Shown here one piece after another: positions 1-12,586 of a stretch of 12,586 nucleotides of DNA. The notes under the pieces were generated by a model. That model made no database searches. It saw only the letters and a list, made by a program, of their open reading frames with translations, and was not told the DNA's origin. Position 1 is the stretch's first letter; each line of letters starts with the position of its first letter. This DNA is from a virus (taxonomy: Duplodnaviria; Heunggongvirae; Uroviricota; Caudoviricetes), in IMG/VR virus record IMGVR_UViG_2534681978_000013; one strand, written 5' to 3'. Made by a program: the position numbers and the translations under genes.

Positions 1-674
1 GAACAGAGCGGCAATAAGTCGTCATCCCATGTTTTATCCAGGGCGATCAGCAGAGTGTTAATCTCCTGCATGGTTTCATCGTTAACCGGAGTGATGTCGC
101 GTTCTGGCTGACGTTCTGCAGTGTATGCGGTATTTTCGACAATGCGCTCGGCTTCATCCTTGTCATAGATACCAGCAAATCCGAAGGCCAGACGAGCACA
201 CTGAATCATGGCTTTATGCCGTAACATCCGTTTGGGATGCGACTGCCACGGCCCCGTGATTTCTCTGCCTTCGCGGGTTTTGAATGGTGCGCGGCGACAT
301 TCATCCATCCACTCGGTAACGCAGATCGGGTGATTGCGATCTTTGCGGTAAATCCGGCATGTACAGGACTCATTGTCCTGCTCAAAGTCCATGCCATCAA
401 ACTGCTGGTTTTCATTGATAATGCGGGACCAGCCATCAACGCCAACCACCGGAACGATGCCGTTCTGCTTATCAGGGAAGGCGTAAATTTCTTTCGTCCA
501 CGGATTAAGGCCGTACTGGTTGGCGACGATCAACAATGCGATAAATTGCGCATCGCTGGCATCACCTTTAAATGCCGTCTGGCGAAGAGTGGTGATTAGT
601 TCCTGTGGGTCGACAGAATCCATGCCGACACGTTCAGCCAGCTTCCCTGCCAGCGTTGCGAGTGCTGTACTCAT
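1..674 (-). CDS. bet: Bet-like single-strand annealing recombinase, partial (C-terminus runs off the window start)
   Basis: Hand translation of the minus strand from ATG at 674 gives MSTALATLAGKLAERVGMDSVDPQELITTLRQTAFKGDASDAQFIALLIVANQYGLNPWTKEIYAFPDKQNG..., which matches my recollection of lambda Bet almost residue for residue. Not in the ORF track because no stop lies within the window. Confidence 0.9.
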   Translation of the reverse strand, partial: MSTALATLAGKLAERVGMDSVDPQELITTLRQTAFKGDASDAQFIALLIVANQYGLNPWTKEIYAFPDKQNGIVPVVGVDGWSRIINENQQFDGMDFEQDNESCTCRIYRKDRNHPICVTEWMDECRRAPFKTREGREITGPWQSHPKRMLRHKAMIQCARLAFGFAGIYDKDEAERIVENTAYTAERQPERDITPVNDETMQEINTLLIALDKTWDDDLLPLC

Positions 675-679
675 CCGTT

Positions 680-976
680 TTATACCTCTGAATCAATATT
701 AATTTGGTGACGGGCGATGGTTTCAGCCATGTAGCGGATGTGTTCTGCCATGCGTTCCTGAAAATCGACATCGTCATCAAATGCACGGGAAATAGCTTTT
801 TTGCTGGCCCCGTGACGTTGCAGATTATCGATGCATAGCGATTCAAACAGGTGTTGGGGCAGACCTTTTTCCAGGTCGTCTGCCAGCTCAGCTTCAGTTT
901 CTTCACGGGCAATTTGCTGGTAGTGTCGTGCCCATGACTGCTCTTCAATGCGATCGGGGATAAGCCAGGCATTCAT
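680..976 (-). CDS. gam: Gam-like RecBCD inhibitor, 98 aa (short form)
   Basis: Protein [26 protein letters not shown]...[20 protein letters not shown] closely resembles the C-terminal 98 aa of lambda Gam. Stop TAA lies 5 nt upstream of the bet ATG; the start overlaps the stop of the upstream 690-aa ORF (ATGA). Confidence 0.85.
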
Positions 977-3045
977 GATTTATCACCTCCGAAATTTTCA
1001 AGCCTGTTGGCAATCATGATGGCGATATCAGGGATTGCTGGCGCTGTGGCTATACATGCGGGGTTGGCGCACAAACCATAGACGGCGGCAATCACGAGCT
1101 GTCTTTTCCAGTCGAGAGTTACTGGCTCAGAATTGGCGTCATCGCCGGACGTATCACTGCCTGGCTCGTTCTGAACAACGGTTTCGCCCTCCTGAGCGGC
1201 ATCAACAGAGTTTTCCTGAATGATCTTCTCCTCAGTTTGTGCTGAGTCTTCTCCATCAGCGGCGTCATTTTCTCCAAAAGTTTCAGCGTAAGTTTCATCT
1301 CCCATTACTGGACCACAGTCAGGGCAATGGCCGCCACCGTTCCGACTGCATGTGGTGCAAACCTTTTCCACTTCCTGTTGCATTACTGGCCCTGGCTGTT
1401 GCTCTTCTGGCCCGTTTTGTTGCGTATCCGGGCTGTTTTGTCCCGCTTCTGGGGCAATTTGTTCCACTTTGGACTGATTCTGGTCCTCAGTGTCGCGAGT
1501 CTGGATCCCCTTCACCCACTTCGGATCAGCAGGGTTACTGATGCATTCAACGAATTCTCCACGCGAGGCAGCCAGTAATTTGTCGGCATCGACTGGATTT
1601 TTTGGGGGGATGTTTTCCCTGGCTTTATTGAGTTCCTCCCTCAGTTCCTGGTATTTCGTTTCTACAGATGAGACATTTTCCAGTGATTGCGTGTCCTCAT
1701 TATGTTTAACTGGAATTTCTTCCACTGATTCAGGCGCTGCCTGTTCATTAGCCATTGTGTCCGATGCTTGTTGCTTTTCTTCATCGCCATGTTTTCCTTC
1801 TGCTGTTCCGCACTGCGGCATCGGTGCTGATGAGCGACCGCAGGCAATTTCCACGATTTCCGGATCCGGGTTAGCGTGATCGGTTTCGGTCAACACTTTG
1901 TTGAGATATTCAGTCACGCGTGCCGGGATGGCCTCAATGCCGATTGGTGCTTCTTTCACGGAAGCCACCACAATGGCGCGGGAATAATCCAGCCCACCGG
2001 GCATGGCGATAAATTTGTCGCGAAAAACAGAAAAGGGCGGCTTATTCTCTGACACGATTTCTTCAACGCGTTTTGCGTGTGCTGGGTGCAGGTTATAAAT
2101 ATCCACATCCATTGAACGGGCCAGAACGCCGGTGGCTACATCTCGTGCGAGTGATGTCTTATCATGTTTGAATCCTTCACCACGATCGGTAATATTTCCG
2201 CCGCCAGCGTTAGCACCGGAAGGCGTACGGGTAATGCCTGAAACATAATTTCCGTTCTGCCATTCTTTTGTCAGCAGGCCCTGATCAAGGTAGTCAGTTT
2301 TCATCCAGGTGGAAATGAACTTGTCGAATTCAGCCGGGCTGATTCGATGATTTGCAGAGTGGGGGAATGCTTTCCCTACAGATTCAGCCAGGCGACTAAG
2401 GTGATAGTTCGTCAGTTTATCCAGTTCATGATGCGCGGCGCGCACAGCAGTAAGCAGGCTCTGAAGGTAACTGTCCTCTGTGTCCATCTCCATACGGATC
2501 ACGTTATTGCGTTGTTCTGGTGTGGCATGATGCCGGTATTTTCCATCTTCATCTTTGCTGAATAAGAAGAGGTGAAGGAAGCGATGAGTAAGGCTCAGAG
2601 TGGCGACGGGAATTTCACACTCAGAACAGTCATCGTCGCTGTCCGGGGATTCGCTTTTCTCCACATCATCCGGAATAGTTCCGTCCAGGTTATCGTTGTC
2701 ATCGCCAGCAGTTGTGGCATCTTCACCGTTGATGTTGTCATCGAAGGGGATAGCCATCATGGTGATGCCATCGTTACCGCCTTTTTCATAGCGGTTGCAG
2801 AATTCAGTATCAAACACGCCTTCCGGTGGAAGGTCATTCACGACGGGGAAATTTACGCGAACGGGTTTTTTGAAATCATCCTCGTCGTAGCCTGCATCGT
2901 CCATGGCTGCAATGCAGCGGGAAACTGCGACAGAAAGTTTTCTGGCCTCGGTCCAGAAAAAACCGCCTTTGATGCCAAGGCGTTTTCTGACTTTATCGTT
3001 TTTTGCTTCGCAGTGTAGTGCAAAAGTCTGTTTATCAGCGCTCAT
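973..3045 (-). CDS. Large acidic hypothetical protein (690 aa) with a CxxC-x7-CxxC zinc-ribbon motif; possibly related to the non-nuclease N-terminal region of RecE-family proteins
   Basis: Long uninterrupted ORF co-oriented with the pL operon. Contains D/E-rich low-complexity stretches and [15 protein letters not shown]. The block ...[16 protein letters not shown]...[58 protein letters not shown]... resembles, from memory only, the N-terminal part of Rac RecE. No C-terminal nuclease domain: the ORF ends where gam begins. Confidence 0.8.
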
Positions 3046-3152
3046 TGTATTTAAACCTCTGGCTGGATTAGAATTAGCGGCCCTTTGTCTGATTTCTCCG
3101 AATACGGTGACGCAGGGAGAAATCCGGTAGCCTGCGCTGCCGGATTTTTATT

Positions 3153-3539
3153 TCAGTGGAAGGTTGCCTGGTTTGCTGTTTTGTGAGTTGTTTTTCCCTT
3201 TTCGTGCTGGCATTCAGGGCAGTCGCACTCAGAATTTTCTCTTGCAAACTCAAGAGCCTGTGCAAGTGTATGGATTTGTTGTACTCCAATGTTGCTTCTG
3301 ACAACTTCACGTGCAGCATGAATATATGGGCTTGGTGTTTTGCCATTTAACCCACATAAAACAAAACGACTGTCCTTATATTCGTTATTTCCAACTTCTG
3401 TAAGCACTGAAAAAGAAAATACAAAGTCGATTTTGTATTCTTTGCATATTTTACTGATGCGTTCTGCAATTTCTTTGAGTTCATTTATTGCATCAGGACT
3501 GGTTTTGGAAAATATTTCATTTTGCGCAAGTTCTTTCAT
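3153..3539 (-). CDS. Hypothetical protein, 128 aa, AT-rich gene
   Basis: ORF in operon orientation; AT-rich by eye relative to the flanks; C-terminal CDCPEC cysteine cluster; no family recognised. Confidence 0.55.
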   Translation of the reverse strand: MKELAQNEIFSKTSPDAINELKEIAERISKICKEYKIDFVFSFSVLTEVGNNEYKDSRFVLCGLNGKTPSPYIHAAREVVRSNIGVQQIHTLAQALEFARENSECDCPECQHEKGKTTHKTANQATFH

Positions 3540-4869: not shown

Positions 4870-5586
4870 TCAGGCGGTCAGCTCTTTAAGCTTCTGAACT
4901 GCTTTATTCATTTCATCCATACAGTCGATGAATTCGTCCAGTTTAAGCTGCATTTTTCCGGCGGCCTGAAGAATTTCAAGTTTTAAGGGCGCAAGTTTTT
5001 TGTTGAATGCATCATCTTCCTGGCGTTTTTTCTCCGCAATTTCGGCGGCTTTCAGCAATTCTTCAGCCTGTTTTCTGAGTATTTCTGGTGAAGGTGAAAC
5101 TGCTTTGAGGTTATTCATTTCAGGTTCCTGTTGTTGCAGAATTAATTTGTTGCATTCTCTGCGTGAGCGTTTCATTGCAGATTCGCACTTCTTGCAATAA
5201 ATGGCTCTCCCGTCACGCTTGCTGGCATCTGAATAAAAATCATTGACTGATTTTGTCTGCCCGCATCTGGTACATAATTTTGATTGAAGGTCCTTAATGA
5301 TTGTGACGTTTCCTTCCCGTTTGGGATATCCATATTTTTTGTGGCGGAAAAAGGTTACTCCGTTACCAGAACCTTCTTTTCTGACCTTAAATACAATGAT
5401 GCTTTCCCGTTTATCGATAAAATCTATGAGCTGGTTTCTCTCCTTTCCTGACAGTTCGGCAAATGTCTTAACTTTTTTAGTAACTTCCGTAAGGCGAACT
5501 CCATCAGGCATTTTTTCAACGAAGTTTTTAATCTCTGCAAGCGGACGCCATAATTTTTGCGGCAAAACTGAAGGCGTGGTCATCAA
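4870..5586 (-). CDS. Hypothetical protein, about 237 aa, with a zinc ribbon (CTRCGQ...CKKC) and a Lys/Glu-rich coiled-coil C-terminus
   Basis: The ATG at 5583 (or TTG at 5586) directly abuts the TGA stop of the N-like gene (tgaTTGATG), implying translational coupling with N. Occupies the sieB/ral-like position. Confidence 0.7.
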   Translation of the reverse strand: MMTTPSVLPQKLWRPLAEIKNFVEKMPDGVRLTEVTKKVKTFAELSGKERNQLIDFIDKRESIIVFKVRKEGSGNGVTFFRHKKYGYPKREGNVTIIKDLQSKLCTRCGQTKSVNDFYSDASKRDGRAIYCKKCESAMKRSRRECNKLILQQQEPEMNNLKAVSPSPEILRKQAEELLKAAEIAEKKRQEDDAFNKKLAPLKLEILQAAGKMQLKLDEFIDCMDEMNKAVQKLKELTA

Positions 5587-6440: not shown

Positions 6441-6466
6441 ACCCGGCGCTGAGGCCGGGTTTTTCT
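6441..6466. terminator. Bidirectional intrinsic terminator, end of the cI-cargo operon
   Basis: aaagaaa-ACCCGGC-gctgag-GCCGGGT-ttttct: a 7-bp GC stem flanked by an A-run and a T-run, immediately after the TAG stop of the 258-aa ORF. Lambda has the same hairpin left of rexB. Confidence 0.8.
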
Positions 6467-7241
6467 AGGCTACCAGAGACTCAATCCAAGAGTCTCTGGT
6501 ATGGAATGGCAACACTCGTGCGGTATCATTAAATAGTAGTGATAGTTGCTGTAGCTCAGGTGTTAACCCATCGCTGTCAACTATTACAAATCTATTGTTT
6601 ATGTCAGGAACGACCTGACTTAAGTCAACAATCTTCCCAACTGTTGAGTGGGCAGTATTCCATCCCTTACTGCTGGCAAGGCTTACCGTAAACCCGCGTT
6701 TTGGTGGTATTAGTCGAGACTCATTCCTTAGCGTTAACGGAACAGTAATGTTATGCCCACTAATACCTTTCACTTTTTCCTTTAAGGCTAGTCGCTTCCC
6801 AAGCCCTGCTGATTTTAAGTAACTGATTACACATTTTTCGAACTTATCGTCTTTGACCTCAGCATACCAATCAGCAGTTTGGGCGGATGCAAGAATCCCA
6901 CCACGAATAACATTTGCAGTTACCTGTCCAACGGACGACTCATCTGCCCACGCAGATATCTCTCCAGAGTCATTTAATGAAATTCCTTGCGAAGCGAGTG
7001 ATGACCTGATCAGATCAATTTTCTTTTTAGTCAGGTGGATGCCGCGTGATTCAATATTCATCAATGTATCGCAGTAGTCTGTAACCCTATACTGACCACT
7101 CATCTCTTGAACGAATACACTTATCTGCTCACAATCATCGTAGTATGTGAATGGACTAATAACGCGCAGCAACGTGTCGCTCATTGGGTGGCATTCAAAC
7201 CCGAGCTTAGATATGACTGTTGAACACGTTACATTTCCCAT
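6465..7241 (-). CDS. Hypothetical protein, 258 aa (alternative start at 7184), distal gene of the cassette in the rexB position
   Basis: Long ORF co-oriented with cI, overlapping the upstream 180-aa ORF by 13 nt; AT-rich by eye; no RexB similarity and no family recognised. Confidence 0.7.
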   Translation of the reverse strand: MGNVTCSTVISKLGFECHPMSDTLLRVISPFTYYDDCEQISVFVQEMSGQYRVTDYCDTLMNIESRGIHLTKKKIDLIRSSLASQGISLNDSGEISAWADESSVGQVTANVIRGGILASAQTADWYAEVKDDKFEKCVISYLKSAGLGKRLALKEKVKGISGHNITVPLTLRNESRLIPPKRGFTVSLASSKGWNTAHSTVGKIVDLSQVVPDINNRFVIVDSDGLTPELQQLSLLFNDTARVLPFHTRDSWIESLVA

Positions 7242-7771
7242 GATAACTGACCTGATTTATCTTGATTAGGTAAAGGTGGGCTGCCTTCATATATGATATT
7301 AAGCGCCTCGCAAAAATAATTCCAGTAGCCAAAAAAATCATCTGGCTTGATGTTCGTTTCAAGCTTAAGTGCAATTTCTTCCCCAGCTGATTCGAAGTAC
7401 ATGTGATAGTGAGGACCTCGAGCCACCTCAACAAAATCTGGATGGTTCACTATAGATTTATTACGGTGTGGCTTGTTATCCGCAGGGTACGGATCAAGCG
7501 CGTAAATGCGCCTGTCATGAAGAAACATCACAAATGAAATCTTCACTATATCCACCCCTTCAACGATAGGAGGACGCCAGTGAAGCATAAATCTTATGCC
7601 TGTGATTGGGTTGCCAATTTCATCAAAAGCTTTGAGATCCAATTTAAACCAGATTGGGGTTCGTCCCTCACTTCCGGTCCATGTAACTCCGCTAAAAGTT
7701 ACTTTTTTCAAGCGAGTAATAGCTTGGTCAACCTCTTTCTGGGTAGGCTTAAAGTCGCCTTTTTTAGCCAC
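7229..7771 (-). CDS. Hypothetical protein, 180 aa (GTG start), proximal gene of the cassette in the rexA position
   Basis: ORF begins 46 bp downstream of the cI stop with a GTG start and a GGTGA SD-like element upstream; no RexA similarity and no family recognised. Confidence 0.7.
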   Translation of the reverse strand: MAKKGDFKPTQKEVDQAITRLKKVTFSGVTWTGSEGRTPIWFKLDLKAFDEIGNPITGIRFMLHWRPPIVEGVDIVKISFVMFLHDRRIYALDPYPADNKPHRNKSIVNHPDFVEVARGPHYHMYFESAGEEIALKLETNIKPDDFFGYWNYFCEALNIIYEGSPPLPNQDKSGQLSWEM

Positions 7772-11376: not shown

Positions 11377-12147
11377 ATGGAAACCGTATTGCATGCACTG
11401 AAAGCGATGGGAAAAGCCAATTCTGTTGAACTGGCGGCGCGGCTTGATATCAGCCGTGAAGAAGTTCTCAACGAACTGTGGGAGCTCAAAAAAAATGGCG
11501 TTGTTGATAAAACGGGTCACACCTGGTTTCTGGCTGTCGAAGGTGAAGCCGGGGTAACCGAAGGGCAGGCACTACAACCTGAAGCGCCGGATGTGGTAAC
11601 CGAAGAGGTCGCTCCAAAAGTTACCGCAGACATGATGATTGAGTTTATCGATCAGGATGGGGCTAAAACGTGTGAGGAACTGGCGGGGAAGTTCGGTGTC
11701 AGCACTCGTAAGGTTGCTTCCACGTTGGCGGTGGTAACAGCAACGAGACGCCTGGTACGCGAGATCAGCAACGGAAAATTCCGTTACAAAATGCCTGATG
11801 TCGAAAACGGCGATTTGAGCGCTTTATCATCGCAGAATAAGCAATCACACCATGACGCAGAAAACAGCGTGGCAGGCGATGAAATGAATCGTTTTCCGTT
11901 GGCATCAGAGAGCACGGCAAAGGCCAGTACAGATGAGTTTATCCGAGAAGTTCCATCATTCACCGAAAAATCTGCCAGTTCGGTGATGCTTCCATCGCTG
12001 CATGCTGCCAGTCGAGAACTTCGTCGCGCCAAAAAACAGGTCCAGAAGTGGGAGCGAGTCTGCGCCGCGCTGCGGGAGCTGAACAAGCACCGGGATATTG
12101 TTCGACAGATTGTCGATTCATCCGGTCGTATTGTGTCGGAAAAGTGA
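11377..12147 (+). CDS. Hypothetical protein, 256 aa, with an N-terminal winged-helix-like segment
   Basis: SD GAGG upstream of the ATG; N-terminal LKAMGKANSVELAARLDISREEVLNELWELKKNGVVDKTGHTWFL resembles a winged-helix fold; repeated WH-like segments; function unknown. Confidence 0.65.
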   Translation: METVLHALKAMGKANSVELAARLDISREEVLNELWELKKNGVVDKTGHTWFLAVEGEAGVTEGQALQPEAPDVVTEEVAPKVTADMMIEFIDQDGAKTCEELAGKFGVSTRKVASTLAVVTATRRLVREISNGKFRYKMPDVENGDLSALSSQNKQSHHDAENSVAGDEMNRFPLASESTAKASTDEFIREVPSFTEKSASSVMLPSLHAASRELRRAKKQVQKWERVCAALRELNKHRDIVRQIVDSSGRIVSEK

Positions 12148-12586
12148 TTGCCGGAGGGCTTGTGGCAAAAGTTTTTACACAAGAAGAGCGGGAGAAAATT
12201 AAAGGGCAGGTTGTTGAACTCGTACGCCAGAGTGGGCGCGAGACGTTACGACAACTGGAAACTAAAACTGGGGCAACAAGATATCTGATGAGCGTTCTGG
12301 CCAGAGAACTGGTTGCCAGTGGCGATGTATACAACTCTGGTTACGGGTTATTCCCGTCTGAACAGGCGCGTAAGGACTGGCAAAATGCTCGCAAAAAACT
12401 CTCAAGGGCAAAGGTGAAGAAACCTGCAGTGGTTGATCCGGACCTTATCTGGTCGTTACCAGACGGCGAAATACGCCGCTACGACAGGCGNCNGAANATA
12501 ATCTGTCGCGAGTGCCGGAAGAGCGAAGTTATGCAGCGCGTACTGGCGNTTTATCANGGTAANTTTCAGGNNGTAGCGCAGTGAGT
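12144..12586 (+). CDS. Hypothetical protein, partial (runs off the window end), probable GTG start overlapping the upstream stop
   Basis: GTG at 12144 overlaps the TGA at 12145-12147 (GTGA) and is in frame with track ORF 12048..12584; the ATG at 12048 lies inside the upstream gene. The 3' end contains ambiguous bases. Confidence 0.5.

Follow-up and report, generated by a model that had tools for sequence, protein, structure and literature searches.

A nuclease-less RecE N-terminal-like protein with a conserved C-terminal tail, encoded beside the Red genes of a lambdoid prophage

The early left operon of a lambdoid prophage (IMG/VR virus record IMGVR_UViG_2534681978_000013, Caudoviricetes) encodes, immediately upstream of gam and bet, a 690-amino-acid (aa) protein that matches the N-terminal part of the Rac prophage exonuclease RecE, lacks the nuclease domain of RecE and carries a short conserved C-terminal tail in its place. 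The gene was studied within a stretch of 12,586 nucleotides (nt), hereafter the window, in which it forms a single open reading frame (ORF). It is an intact gene under purifying selection and neither a chance frame nor a remnant, and it shares a transcript with gam-bet(-exo), to which it is also translationally coupled. Lacking the catalytic domain, the protein is predicted to have no exonuclease activity. The exonuclease names under which the protein is filed are not justified by its sequence.

The resemblance to the N-terminal region of Rac RecE, proposed in an earlier note on this DNA, is borne out by alignment. BLASTP against RecE of Escherichia coli K-12 (from NC_000913) pairs aa 58-601 of the protein with RecE 50-555 at 53% identity (expectation value, E, 5e-176). 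Identity varies by region: it is highest over aa 240-410 (84%; RecE 205-375) and aa 457-513 (75%), falls to 53% in the zinc ribbon and is 14-37% across the first 240 aa. The Pfam family PF06630 (Exonuc_VIII) matches aa 55-197 (E 2e-12), PHROG 607 is matched over positions 1-618 of 883, and the NCBIfam ExoVIII equivalog NF007259 is matched over model positions 1-598 of 877 with 731.4 bits, below its cutoff of 1269.

The nuclease activity of RecE maps to residues 564-866 (PMC11611040), and the 690-aa protein has no counterpart of this region. With two RecE-type nuclease domains as queries, phmmer did not match the protein and tblastn found no remnant in the six frames of the whole window. A nuclease fusion hidden by a frameshift was likewise sought and not found, and gam begins at the ORF stop codon. 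In a close relative, P0115 (1049 aa), BLASTP aligns sequence of 81% identity up to about aa 598, after which comes a PD-(D/E)XK domain (PF12684); because the similarity stops there, the architectural switch point lies inside an acidic linker. At the P0115 locus, as in Rac, recT is directly downstream, whereas the gene after the 690-aa ORF is gam, followed by a Bet-type annealase. Database entries everywhere (GenBank, RefSeq, PHROGs) nonetheless call the protein “exodeoxyribonuclease VIII,” “RecE family exodeoxyribonuclease” or “exonuclease VII,” and are in this respect misnamed.

The ORF and its parts are listed below from the N-terminus to the C-terminus. The predicted local distance difference test (pLDDT) refers to an AlphaFold2 model of the protein built from an 81-sequence alignment (mean pLDDT 74), and the ratio of nonsynonymous to synonymous substitution rates (dN/dS) was computed against the ortholog in Shigella phage 75/02 Stx.

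973..3045, minus strand: whole ORF, 690 aa plus TGA (973-975), with an ATG start; nuclease-less member of the RecE-N / YdfE-like family (ORF, Pfam, NCBIfam, BLASTP; dN/dS 0.23).
2737..3045, minus strand: N-terminal alpha/beta domain, aa 1-103, within the PF06630 match from aa 55 onward (pLDDT 85-98; 14-37% identity to K-12 RecE).
2614..2736, minus strand: acidic linker 1, aa 104-144, predicted disordered (pLDDT <50; 11 D/E per 30 aa).
1816..2613, minus strand: all-helical region, aa 145-410, containing the family core at aa ~263-395 (pLDDT >90; dN/dS 0.13-0.15).
1678..1815, minus strand: acidic linker 2, aa 411-456, predicted disordered (pLDDT 41-58; dN/dS about 1).
1507..1677, minus strand: conserved helical segment YQELREEL..., aa 457-513 (pLDDT 64-91; 75% identical to RecE 425-481; dN/dS 0.13).
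1369..1506, minus strand: linker 3, rich in Q, P and E, aa 514-559, predicted disordered (pLDDT 30-46; 21-aa insertion relative to P0115).
1261..1368, minus strand: zinc-ribbon-like CxxC-x7-CxxC motif and short helix, aa 560-595 (53% identical to RecE 514-544; weakly predicted by AlphaFold2).
1117..1260, minus strand: acidic linker 4, aa 596-643 (pLDDT 33-41; dN/dS 0.6); homology to nuclease-bearing relatives stops at its start, ~aa 598.
976..1116, minus strand: conserved C-terminal tail, aa 644-690, helix-short helix-helix, in the position of the nuclease domain (hmmsearch E 2.5e-21; AlphaFold2 of the tail alone; dN/dS 0.07).

The protein is thus built like beads on a string, with the alpha/beta domain, helical core, helical segment and zinc ribbon joined by fast-evolving, disordered acidic linkers, which act as spacers to judge from their pLDDT below 50 and dN/dS of 0.6-1.0. 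In the AlphaFold2 model itself, the disordered stretches span aa 104-140, 422-456, 514-560 and 591-644. Its acidity, already remarked on in the earlier note, amounts to 125 D and E residues in 690 (18%) against 67 K and R, for a net charge of -58, and the acidic runs lie at aa 104-144, 421-450 and 571-645. The four cysteines of the zinc-ribbon-like motif, also seen at that stage, are C563-x2-C566-x7-C574-x2-C577. As a hallmark of the family the ribbon was rejected, since it occurs in only about 10 of 87 representatives, and it is better described as an optional sub-module.

The helical core carries the motifs SGAxAGGGxxTDR, MDxDIY, LDYSRA and LTETDHxxP. Residues G282, D287, R288, Y317, S355, R356, E387 and H390 are invariant across sequences that are 36-52% identical, and every invariant core position of the family alignment (in GGGxxTDR, DxDIY, LDYSRA and LTETDH) occurs in the 690-aa protein. 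A sequence search of solved structures with the 690-aa protein gave no match; the sole solved RecE structure is that of the nuclease domain, which the protein lacks. For the folded parts of the AlphaFold2 model, no structural relative was found in the PDB or in BFVD (viral predicted structures).

Selection follows the same layout. Over the whole gene dN/dS is 0.23; the tail (0.07) and the folded parts (0.13-0.19) lie below this value, and three linkers lie above it (0.6-1.0). Close homologues of the protein number in the thousands. Overall the family is a narrow one, with only 204 clusters (50% identity) that match at E ≤0.001 among 1.84 billion representatives.

The C-terminal modules differ among 87 family representatives of at least 450 aa. 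A PD-(D/E)XK domain of RecE type is present in 23 of them, a DEDDh Rv2179c-like 3'-5' exonuclease domain (PF16473) in 14 (confirmed by Pfam for P0123 and P0145), and a C-terminal domain of about 230 aa and unassigned type in eight; others have further endings. The tail stands at the extreme C-terminus of another 23 representatives, some only 20-25% identical overall to the 690-aa protein, and none of the 87 combines tail and nuclease domain.

The last ~45 aa of the tail-bearing proteins follow the consensus LTYxQQLTIAALQGLCANPA...DDIPxMA. A profile of 27 tails, which includes the 690-aa protein's own, matches aa 644-684 (E 2.5e-21). Independently of that profile, pairwise BLASTP of the tail with P0213 gives 45% identity (E 3e-9). 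The invariant A-A, G and N-P positions are all present in the 690-aa protein, and AlphaFold2 applied to the tail alone (22 tails) returns a helix, a short helix and a helix at pLDDT 72-83. The tail is a genuine, selected element, because it is conserved at the C-terminus of divergent proteins, has a dN/dS of 0.07 and is predicted to be helical. Against a collection of 5.8 billion proteins, the tail profile retrieved only six proteins, all short at 43-65 aa, of which three carry the annotation exodeoxyribonuclease VIII; the tail was not found in other protein families in what was a shallow search, with 65 candidates scored. A dedicated partner of the tail encoded next to it was considered and rejected: the genes that come next show no relation to one another (gam, DUF1187, a 181-aa ORF, a 67-aa helix-turn-helix-like ORF and an 80-aa ORF).

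Separately, one relative (P0124, 703 aa) has the RecE-N module fused in frame to RecT from profile position 39, with the nuclease domain missing, and resembles what a deletion in a Rac-type recE-recT pair would leave.

Tail-type genes are followed by gam-bet-exo in the window phage and in L010, where a lambda Exo/YqaJ gene lies in the same operon, and by gam and an AAA_24 protein in L011. A PD-(D/E)XK member has recT as its next gene, a DEDDh-fused member has xis/int directly next, and gam precedes a member that ends in the 230-aa domain. Overall, gam adjoins family members in four contexts (the window, L010, L011 and L016). L017 has a DEDDh exonuclease gene that stands alone, two genes upstream of a family member without such a domain. 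A Rosetta-stone pattern ties the module to exonucleases through the fusions, through this stand-alone gene, and through the Exo gene present in the same operon in relatives of the window phage and in L010.

Two further observations concern these loci. In L011 (3416..4815, the locus of P0122), gam is followed by the 365-aa AAA_24 protein in place of bet-exo, so that the recombinase module appears to have been swapped behind the same RecE-N-like gene and gam. Most family-bearing prophages (L007, L008/L009, L010-L013 and L015) share one chromosomal site, beside genes with YebY, CopD and CopC Pfam domains, and in several of those loci genes with DNA_pol3_theta and ExoX-like domains come after the YebY/CopD/CopC genes.

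The earlier note had suggested that the arrangement, if real, is an unusual hybrid recombination module. The combination of a nuclease-less RecE-N-like gene with gam-bet(-exo) stands, but it is recurrent rather than unusual: the junction of ORF tail and gam is found in 79 of 5426 complete E. coli genomes (coverage of at least 80%), and the arrangement also occurs in the Shiga toxin (Stx) phages PhiR5_2, phiSTEC1589-Stx1c, 75/02 Stx and POCJ13. Nor is it a simple hybrid, as tail-bearing nuclease-less homologues also reside in prophages without a recognisable recombinase.

As to function, we lean tentatively, and at somewhat short of even chances, toward the 690-aa protein being a non-catalytic adaptor (for targeting or scaffolding) in the exonucleolytic processing of phage DNA ends. 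The N-terminal module would be the targeting or scaffolding unit. In RecE it would serve a covalently joined 5'-3' PD-(D/E)XK exonuclease and in other relatives a DEDDh exonuclease of 3'-5' polarity; here it would work in trans with a separate lambda-type Exo and Bet (and Gam), the C-terminal tail serving as a docking or oligomerisation element in place of the covalent link. This model is the most economical because the module is either fused to two unrelated exonuclease folds or encoded beside stand-alone exonucleases, and because the N-terminal part of RecE is reported to improve linear-linear recombination. For that reaction full-length RecE performs better than the nuclease domain alone, according to two recombineering reviews (PMC11611040, PMC11610958, citing Fu et al., 2012), in which the role of the ~560-600 N-terminal residues of RecE is called unknown or unclear.

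Several points weigh against an adaptor. In four of the seven tail-type contexts (L005, L007, L008/9 and L012), no recombinase or exonuclease can be recognised downstream, where small unrelated ORFs are the only genes before xis/int; a docking role specific to Red therefore cannot be general. The gene immediately downstream of tail-type homologues differs in every case. The many invariant polar residues of the core (T286, D287, R288, D315, Y317, Y354, S355, R356, E387 and H390) would also suit an enzyme or a specific ligand site, as opposed to a passive scaffold. The recombination phenotype of the RecE N-terminus rests on review statements and not on the primary paper.

A possible but less probable explanation is a factor for host takeover or anti-defence with no dependence on recombination, a highly acidic protein that would neutralise a host DNA-processing or defence complex as Gam and Kil do, with the nuclease fusions being secondary. 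The gene does sit among the host-directed early genes (kil, gam) of the pL operon, the four gam adjacencies and the tail-type homologues in prophages with no recognisable recombinase are in keeping with such a role, and a net charge of -58 together with invariant polar core residues would fit a specific binding site. Inhibitors of the Gam and Ocr type present structured DNA-mimic surfaces. In the 690-aa protein, on the other hand, the acidic runs fall in stretches with pLDDT below 50 that evolve almost neutrally (dN/dS 0.6-1.0), which argues against a structured mimic, although a disordered one is conceivable. A pure inhibitor would, moreover, hardly be expected to have been fused repeatedly to two unrelated exonuclease folds. 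PADLOC, whose models describe defence systems and not anti-defence proteins, gave no match for the ORF. No published defence or anti-defence assignment of the protein was found in a literature search whose reach excluded most subscription journals.

We consider it quite unlikely that the helical core is a new-fold enzyme acting on DNA or nucleotides, with the C-terminal modules, including the tail, modulating or localising it. Polar residues that are invariant or nearly so in four motifs (GGGxxTDR, DxDIY, LDYSRA, LTETDH), among sequences of 36-52% identity, and a helical region predicted at very high confidence without a structural relative are what such an enzyme could look like. However, a sizeable sub-family (e.g., P0132, P0136, P0137 and P0163) keeps the architecture otherwise but lacks these motifs, and searches of Pfam, NCBIfam and PHROGs matched neither a known catalytic signature nor a cofactor motif.

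It is very improbable that the gene is a decaying recE remnant whose nuclease domain was lost by recombination with a lambda-type gam-bet-exo block. Homology to the nuclease-bearing relatives does stop abruptly in the acidic linker at ~aa 598, and clear deletion derivatives such as P0124 do exist in the family. Against decay stand the intact frame, a dN/dS of 0.23 overall and of 0.07 in the tail beyond the junction, the conservation of the tail in 23 divergent family clusters, and an architecture that persists in Stx phages, themselves viable and inducible, and in 79 complete E. coli genomes. The annotation as a true exodeoxyribonuclease VIII is hardly credible, the database names being all that speaks for it against a score of 731 bits where NF007259 (1-598 of 877) asks for 1269, the failure of Pfam, phmmer and tblastn to find a PD-(D/E)XK domain, and the absence of RecE 564-866.

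Returning to the adaptor, a broader version can be put forward as speculation, which we regard as rather unlikely in its full form. The RecE-N / YdfE module would represent a kind of phage DNA-end factor not recognised before; its fold would be an orphan one, its conserved polar pocket would bind a DNA end or a host replication/repair hub, and its C-terminus would be an exchangeable effector slot (5'-3' exonuclease, 3'-5' exonuclease or 45-aa docking tail); the free-standing form would give lambda Red a RecE-like capacity for linear-linear recombination. The sequence family as such is already known to Pfam, NCBIfam and PHROGs. With most subscription journals beyond the search, no paper was found on the nuclease-less form, the conserved tail or the interchangeable C-terminus; neither was a functional study of YdfE, nor a post-2019 paper that gives the RecE N-terminal domain a role.

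Full-length RecE is the basis of direct-cloning technology, and the role of its N-terminal part is still described as unclear. The window contains a natural experiment on this question, in which the module has been uncoupled from the nuclease, is held under purifying selection and lies beside lambda Red, so that the question becomes directly testable. The interchangeable C-terminus, seen across the family, reduces the candidate roles to two: DNA-end processing, or action on a host target that these effectors have in common. Moreover, hundreds of database entries name a nuclease-less protein an exonuclease, and this annotation needs correcting.

As a whole, the window corresponds to the early part of a lambdoid prophage. 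Its plus strand encodes cro, cII and replication genes, and its minus strand encodes bet (partial), gam, the 690-aa ORF, a 128-aa ORF, kil, a 238-aa ORF, N, two accessory genes and a cI like that of lambda. The features next to the 690-aa ORF are the following.

1..674, minus strand: bet, an annealase of lambda Red-beta type (Bet/RecT family), first 224 codons, continuing past the window edge (PF03837 match 3..674, E 2e-33).
680..976, minus strand: gam, 98 aa, equivalent to the GamS form of lambda (PF06064, E 5e-65).
3056..3060, minus strand: AGAGG, a Shine-Dalgarno-like motif 10 nt 5' of the ORF ATG (read from the sequence).

The stop codon TGA of the ORF (975-973) and the ATG of gam (976-974) overlap as ATGA, and the Pfam matches to gam and bet confirm the order reported in the earlier note, which had asked whether exo follows bet beyond the window. 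It does in PhiR5_2 (99% identical) and in 75/02 Stx (90% identical), both of which read kil, 128-aa ORF, equivalent of the 690-aa ORF, gam, bet, exo, a hypothetical ORF of ~83 aa and int. The Gam-Bet-Exo order is accordingly present, with Gam and Bet inside the window and Exo past its edge in those two phages. Like its homologues, the 690-aa ORF belongs to the leftward early operon, with the kil/dicB region on one side and xis/int on the other. A promoter scan revealed no credible internal promoter, and an Rfam scan of the window no RNA family.

Several other features of the window deserve a record. The 107-nt gap between the 128-aa ORF and the 690-aa ORF contains an inverted repeat, AATCCGG-N12-CCGGATT (3121..3146, minus strand); it has no T-run, hence went uncalled by the terminator scan, and may form an RNA stem-loop within the pL transcript. 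The 128-aa ORF itself (3153..3539, minus strand), located between kil and the RecE-N-like gene, matches phrog_2016 (E 2e-78), has no assigned function and carries a C-terminal CDCPEC motif; its position is kept in PhiR5_2 and 75/02 Stx. Directly downstream of N, the 238-aa ORF (4870..5586, minus strand) has a CxxC...CxxC pair (CTRCGQ...CKKCES) and a coiled-coil-like C-terminal region, and no match in Pfam or PADLOC. Two overlapping minus-strand ORFs of 180 aa (7229..7771) and 258 aa (6465..7241) lie directly downstream of the lambda-like cI. They show weak matches to the PADLOC candidate defence system PDC-M24 (PDC-M24A, E 4e-4; PDC-M24B, E 5e-7) and to Pfam DUF6978 and DUF1828, and the pair (6465..7771) may be a prophage-encoded defence cassette. 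The slot downstream of cI is the one in which lambda carries rexA/rexB. Lastly, eight ambiguous bases at 12491..12572 produce X residues in the last ORF (12048..12584, plus strand), a matter of sequence quality and not of biology.

Rac RecE is one of the closest known systems. The 690-aa protein shares with it the homology over RecE 50-555, the same zinc ribbon and the same position early in the left operon, between kil and xis/int. It differs in that RecE 564-866, which comprises the PD-(D/E)XK nuclease and tetramerisation domain, is missing and a 45-aa tail stands instead, in that the first ~240 aa are only 14-37% identical, and in that the neighbours are gam-bet-exo and not recT.

The DEDDh fusions (PF06630 plus PF16473, e.g., P0123 and P0145) have the N-terminal module and the prophage position in common with the 690-aa protein, and the E. 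coli versions also have the zinc ribbon and linker. They end, however, in a DEDDh exonuclease and have no tail, and the fusion in L013 is the only gene between the small ORFs of the immunity region and xis/int.

A second group of relatives is found in Qin-like prophages. Several divergent tail-type proteins bear the precomputed labels PF27430 (YdfE_N) and PF27432 (YdfE_C), which tie the family to ydfE, a pseudogene of the Qin prophage. YdfE-type proteins resemble the 690-aa protein in overall plan, in being nuclease-less, in operon position, in their disordered linkers and in the tail, and the helical core of P0213 is 38% identical (E 2e-23). In contrast, their N-terminal ~220 aa come from another sequence family, the zinc ribbon is absent, and the genes that follow are unrelated small genes and xis/int rather than gam-bet-exo. 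BLASTP shows no similarity between K-12 YdfE and the 690-aa protein; the family link runs through core and tail and not through the N-terminus. Judged by that BLASTP comparison with K-12 YdfE only, the 690-aa protein does not have an N-terminus of YdfE_N type and instead has one of PF06630 type.

The lambda Red operon provides the last comparison. As there, lambda-type gam is followed by bet, here with the ORF translationally coupled to gam, and exo is present in near-identical phages. In canonical lambda, kil lies directly upstream of gam, and no gene like the 690-aa ORF is known there. The ORF is an extra gene that provides none of the three Red functions.

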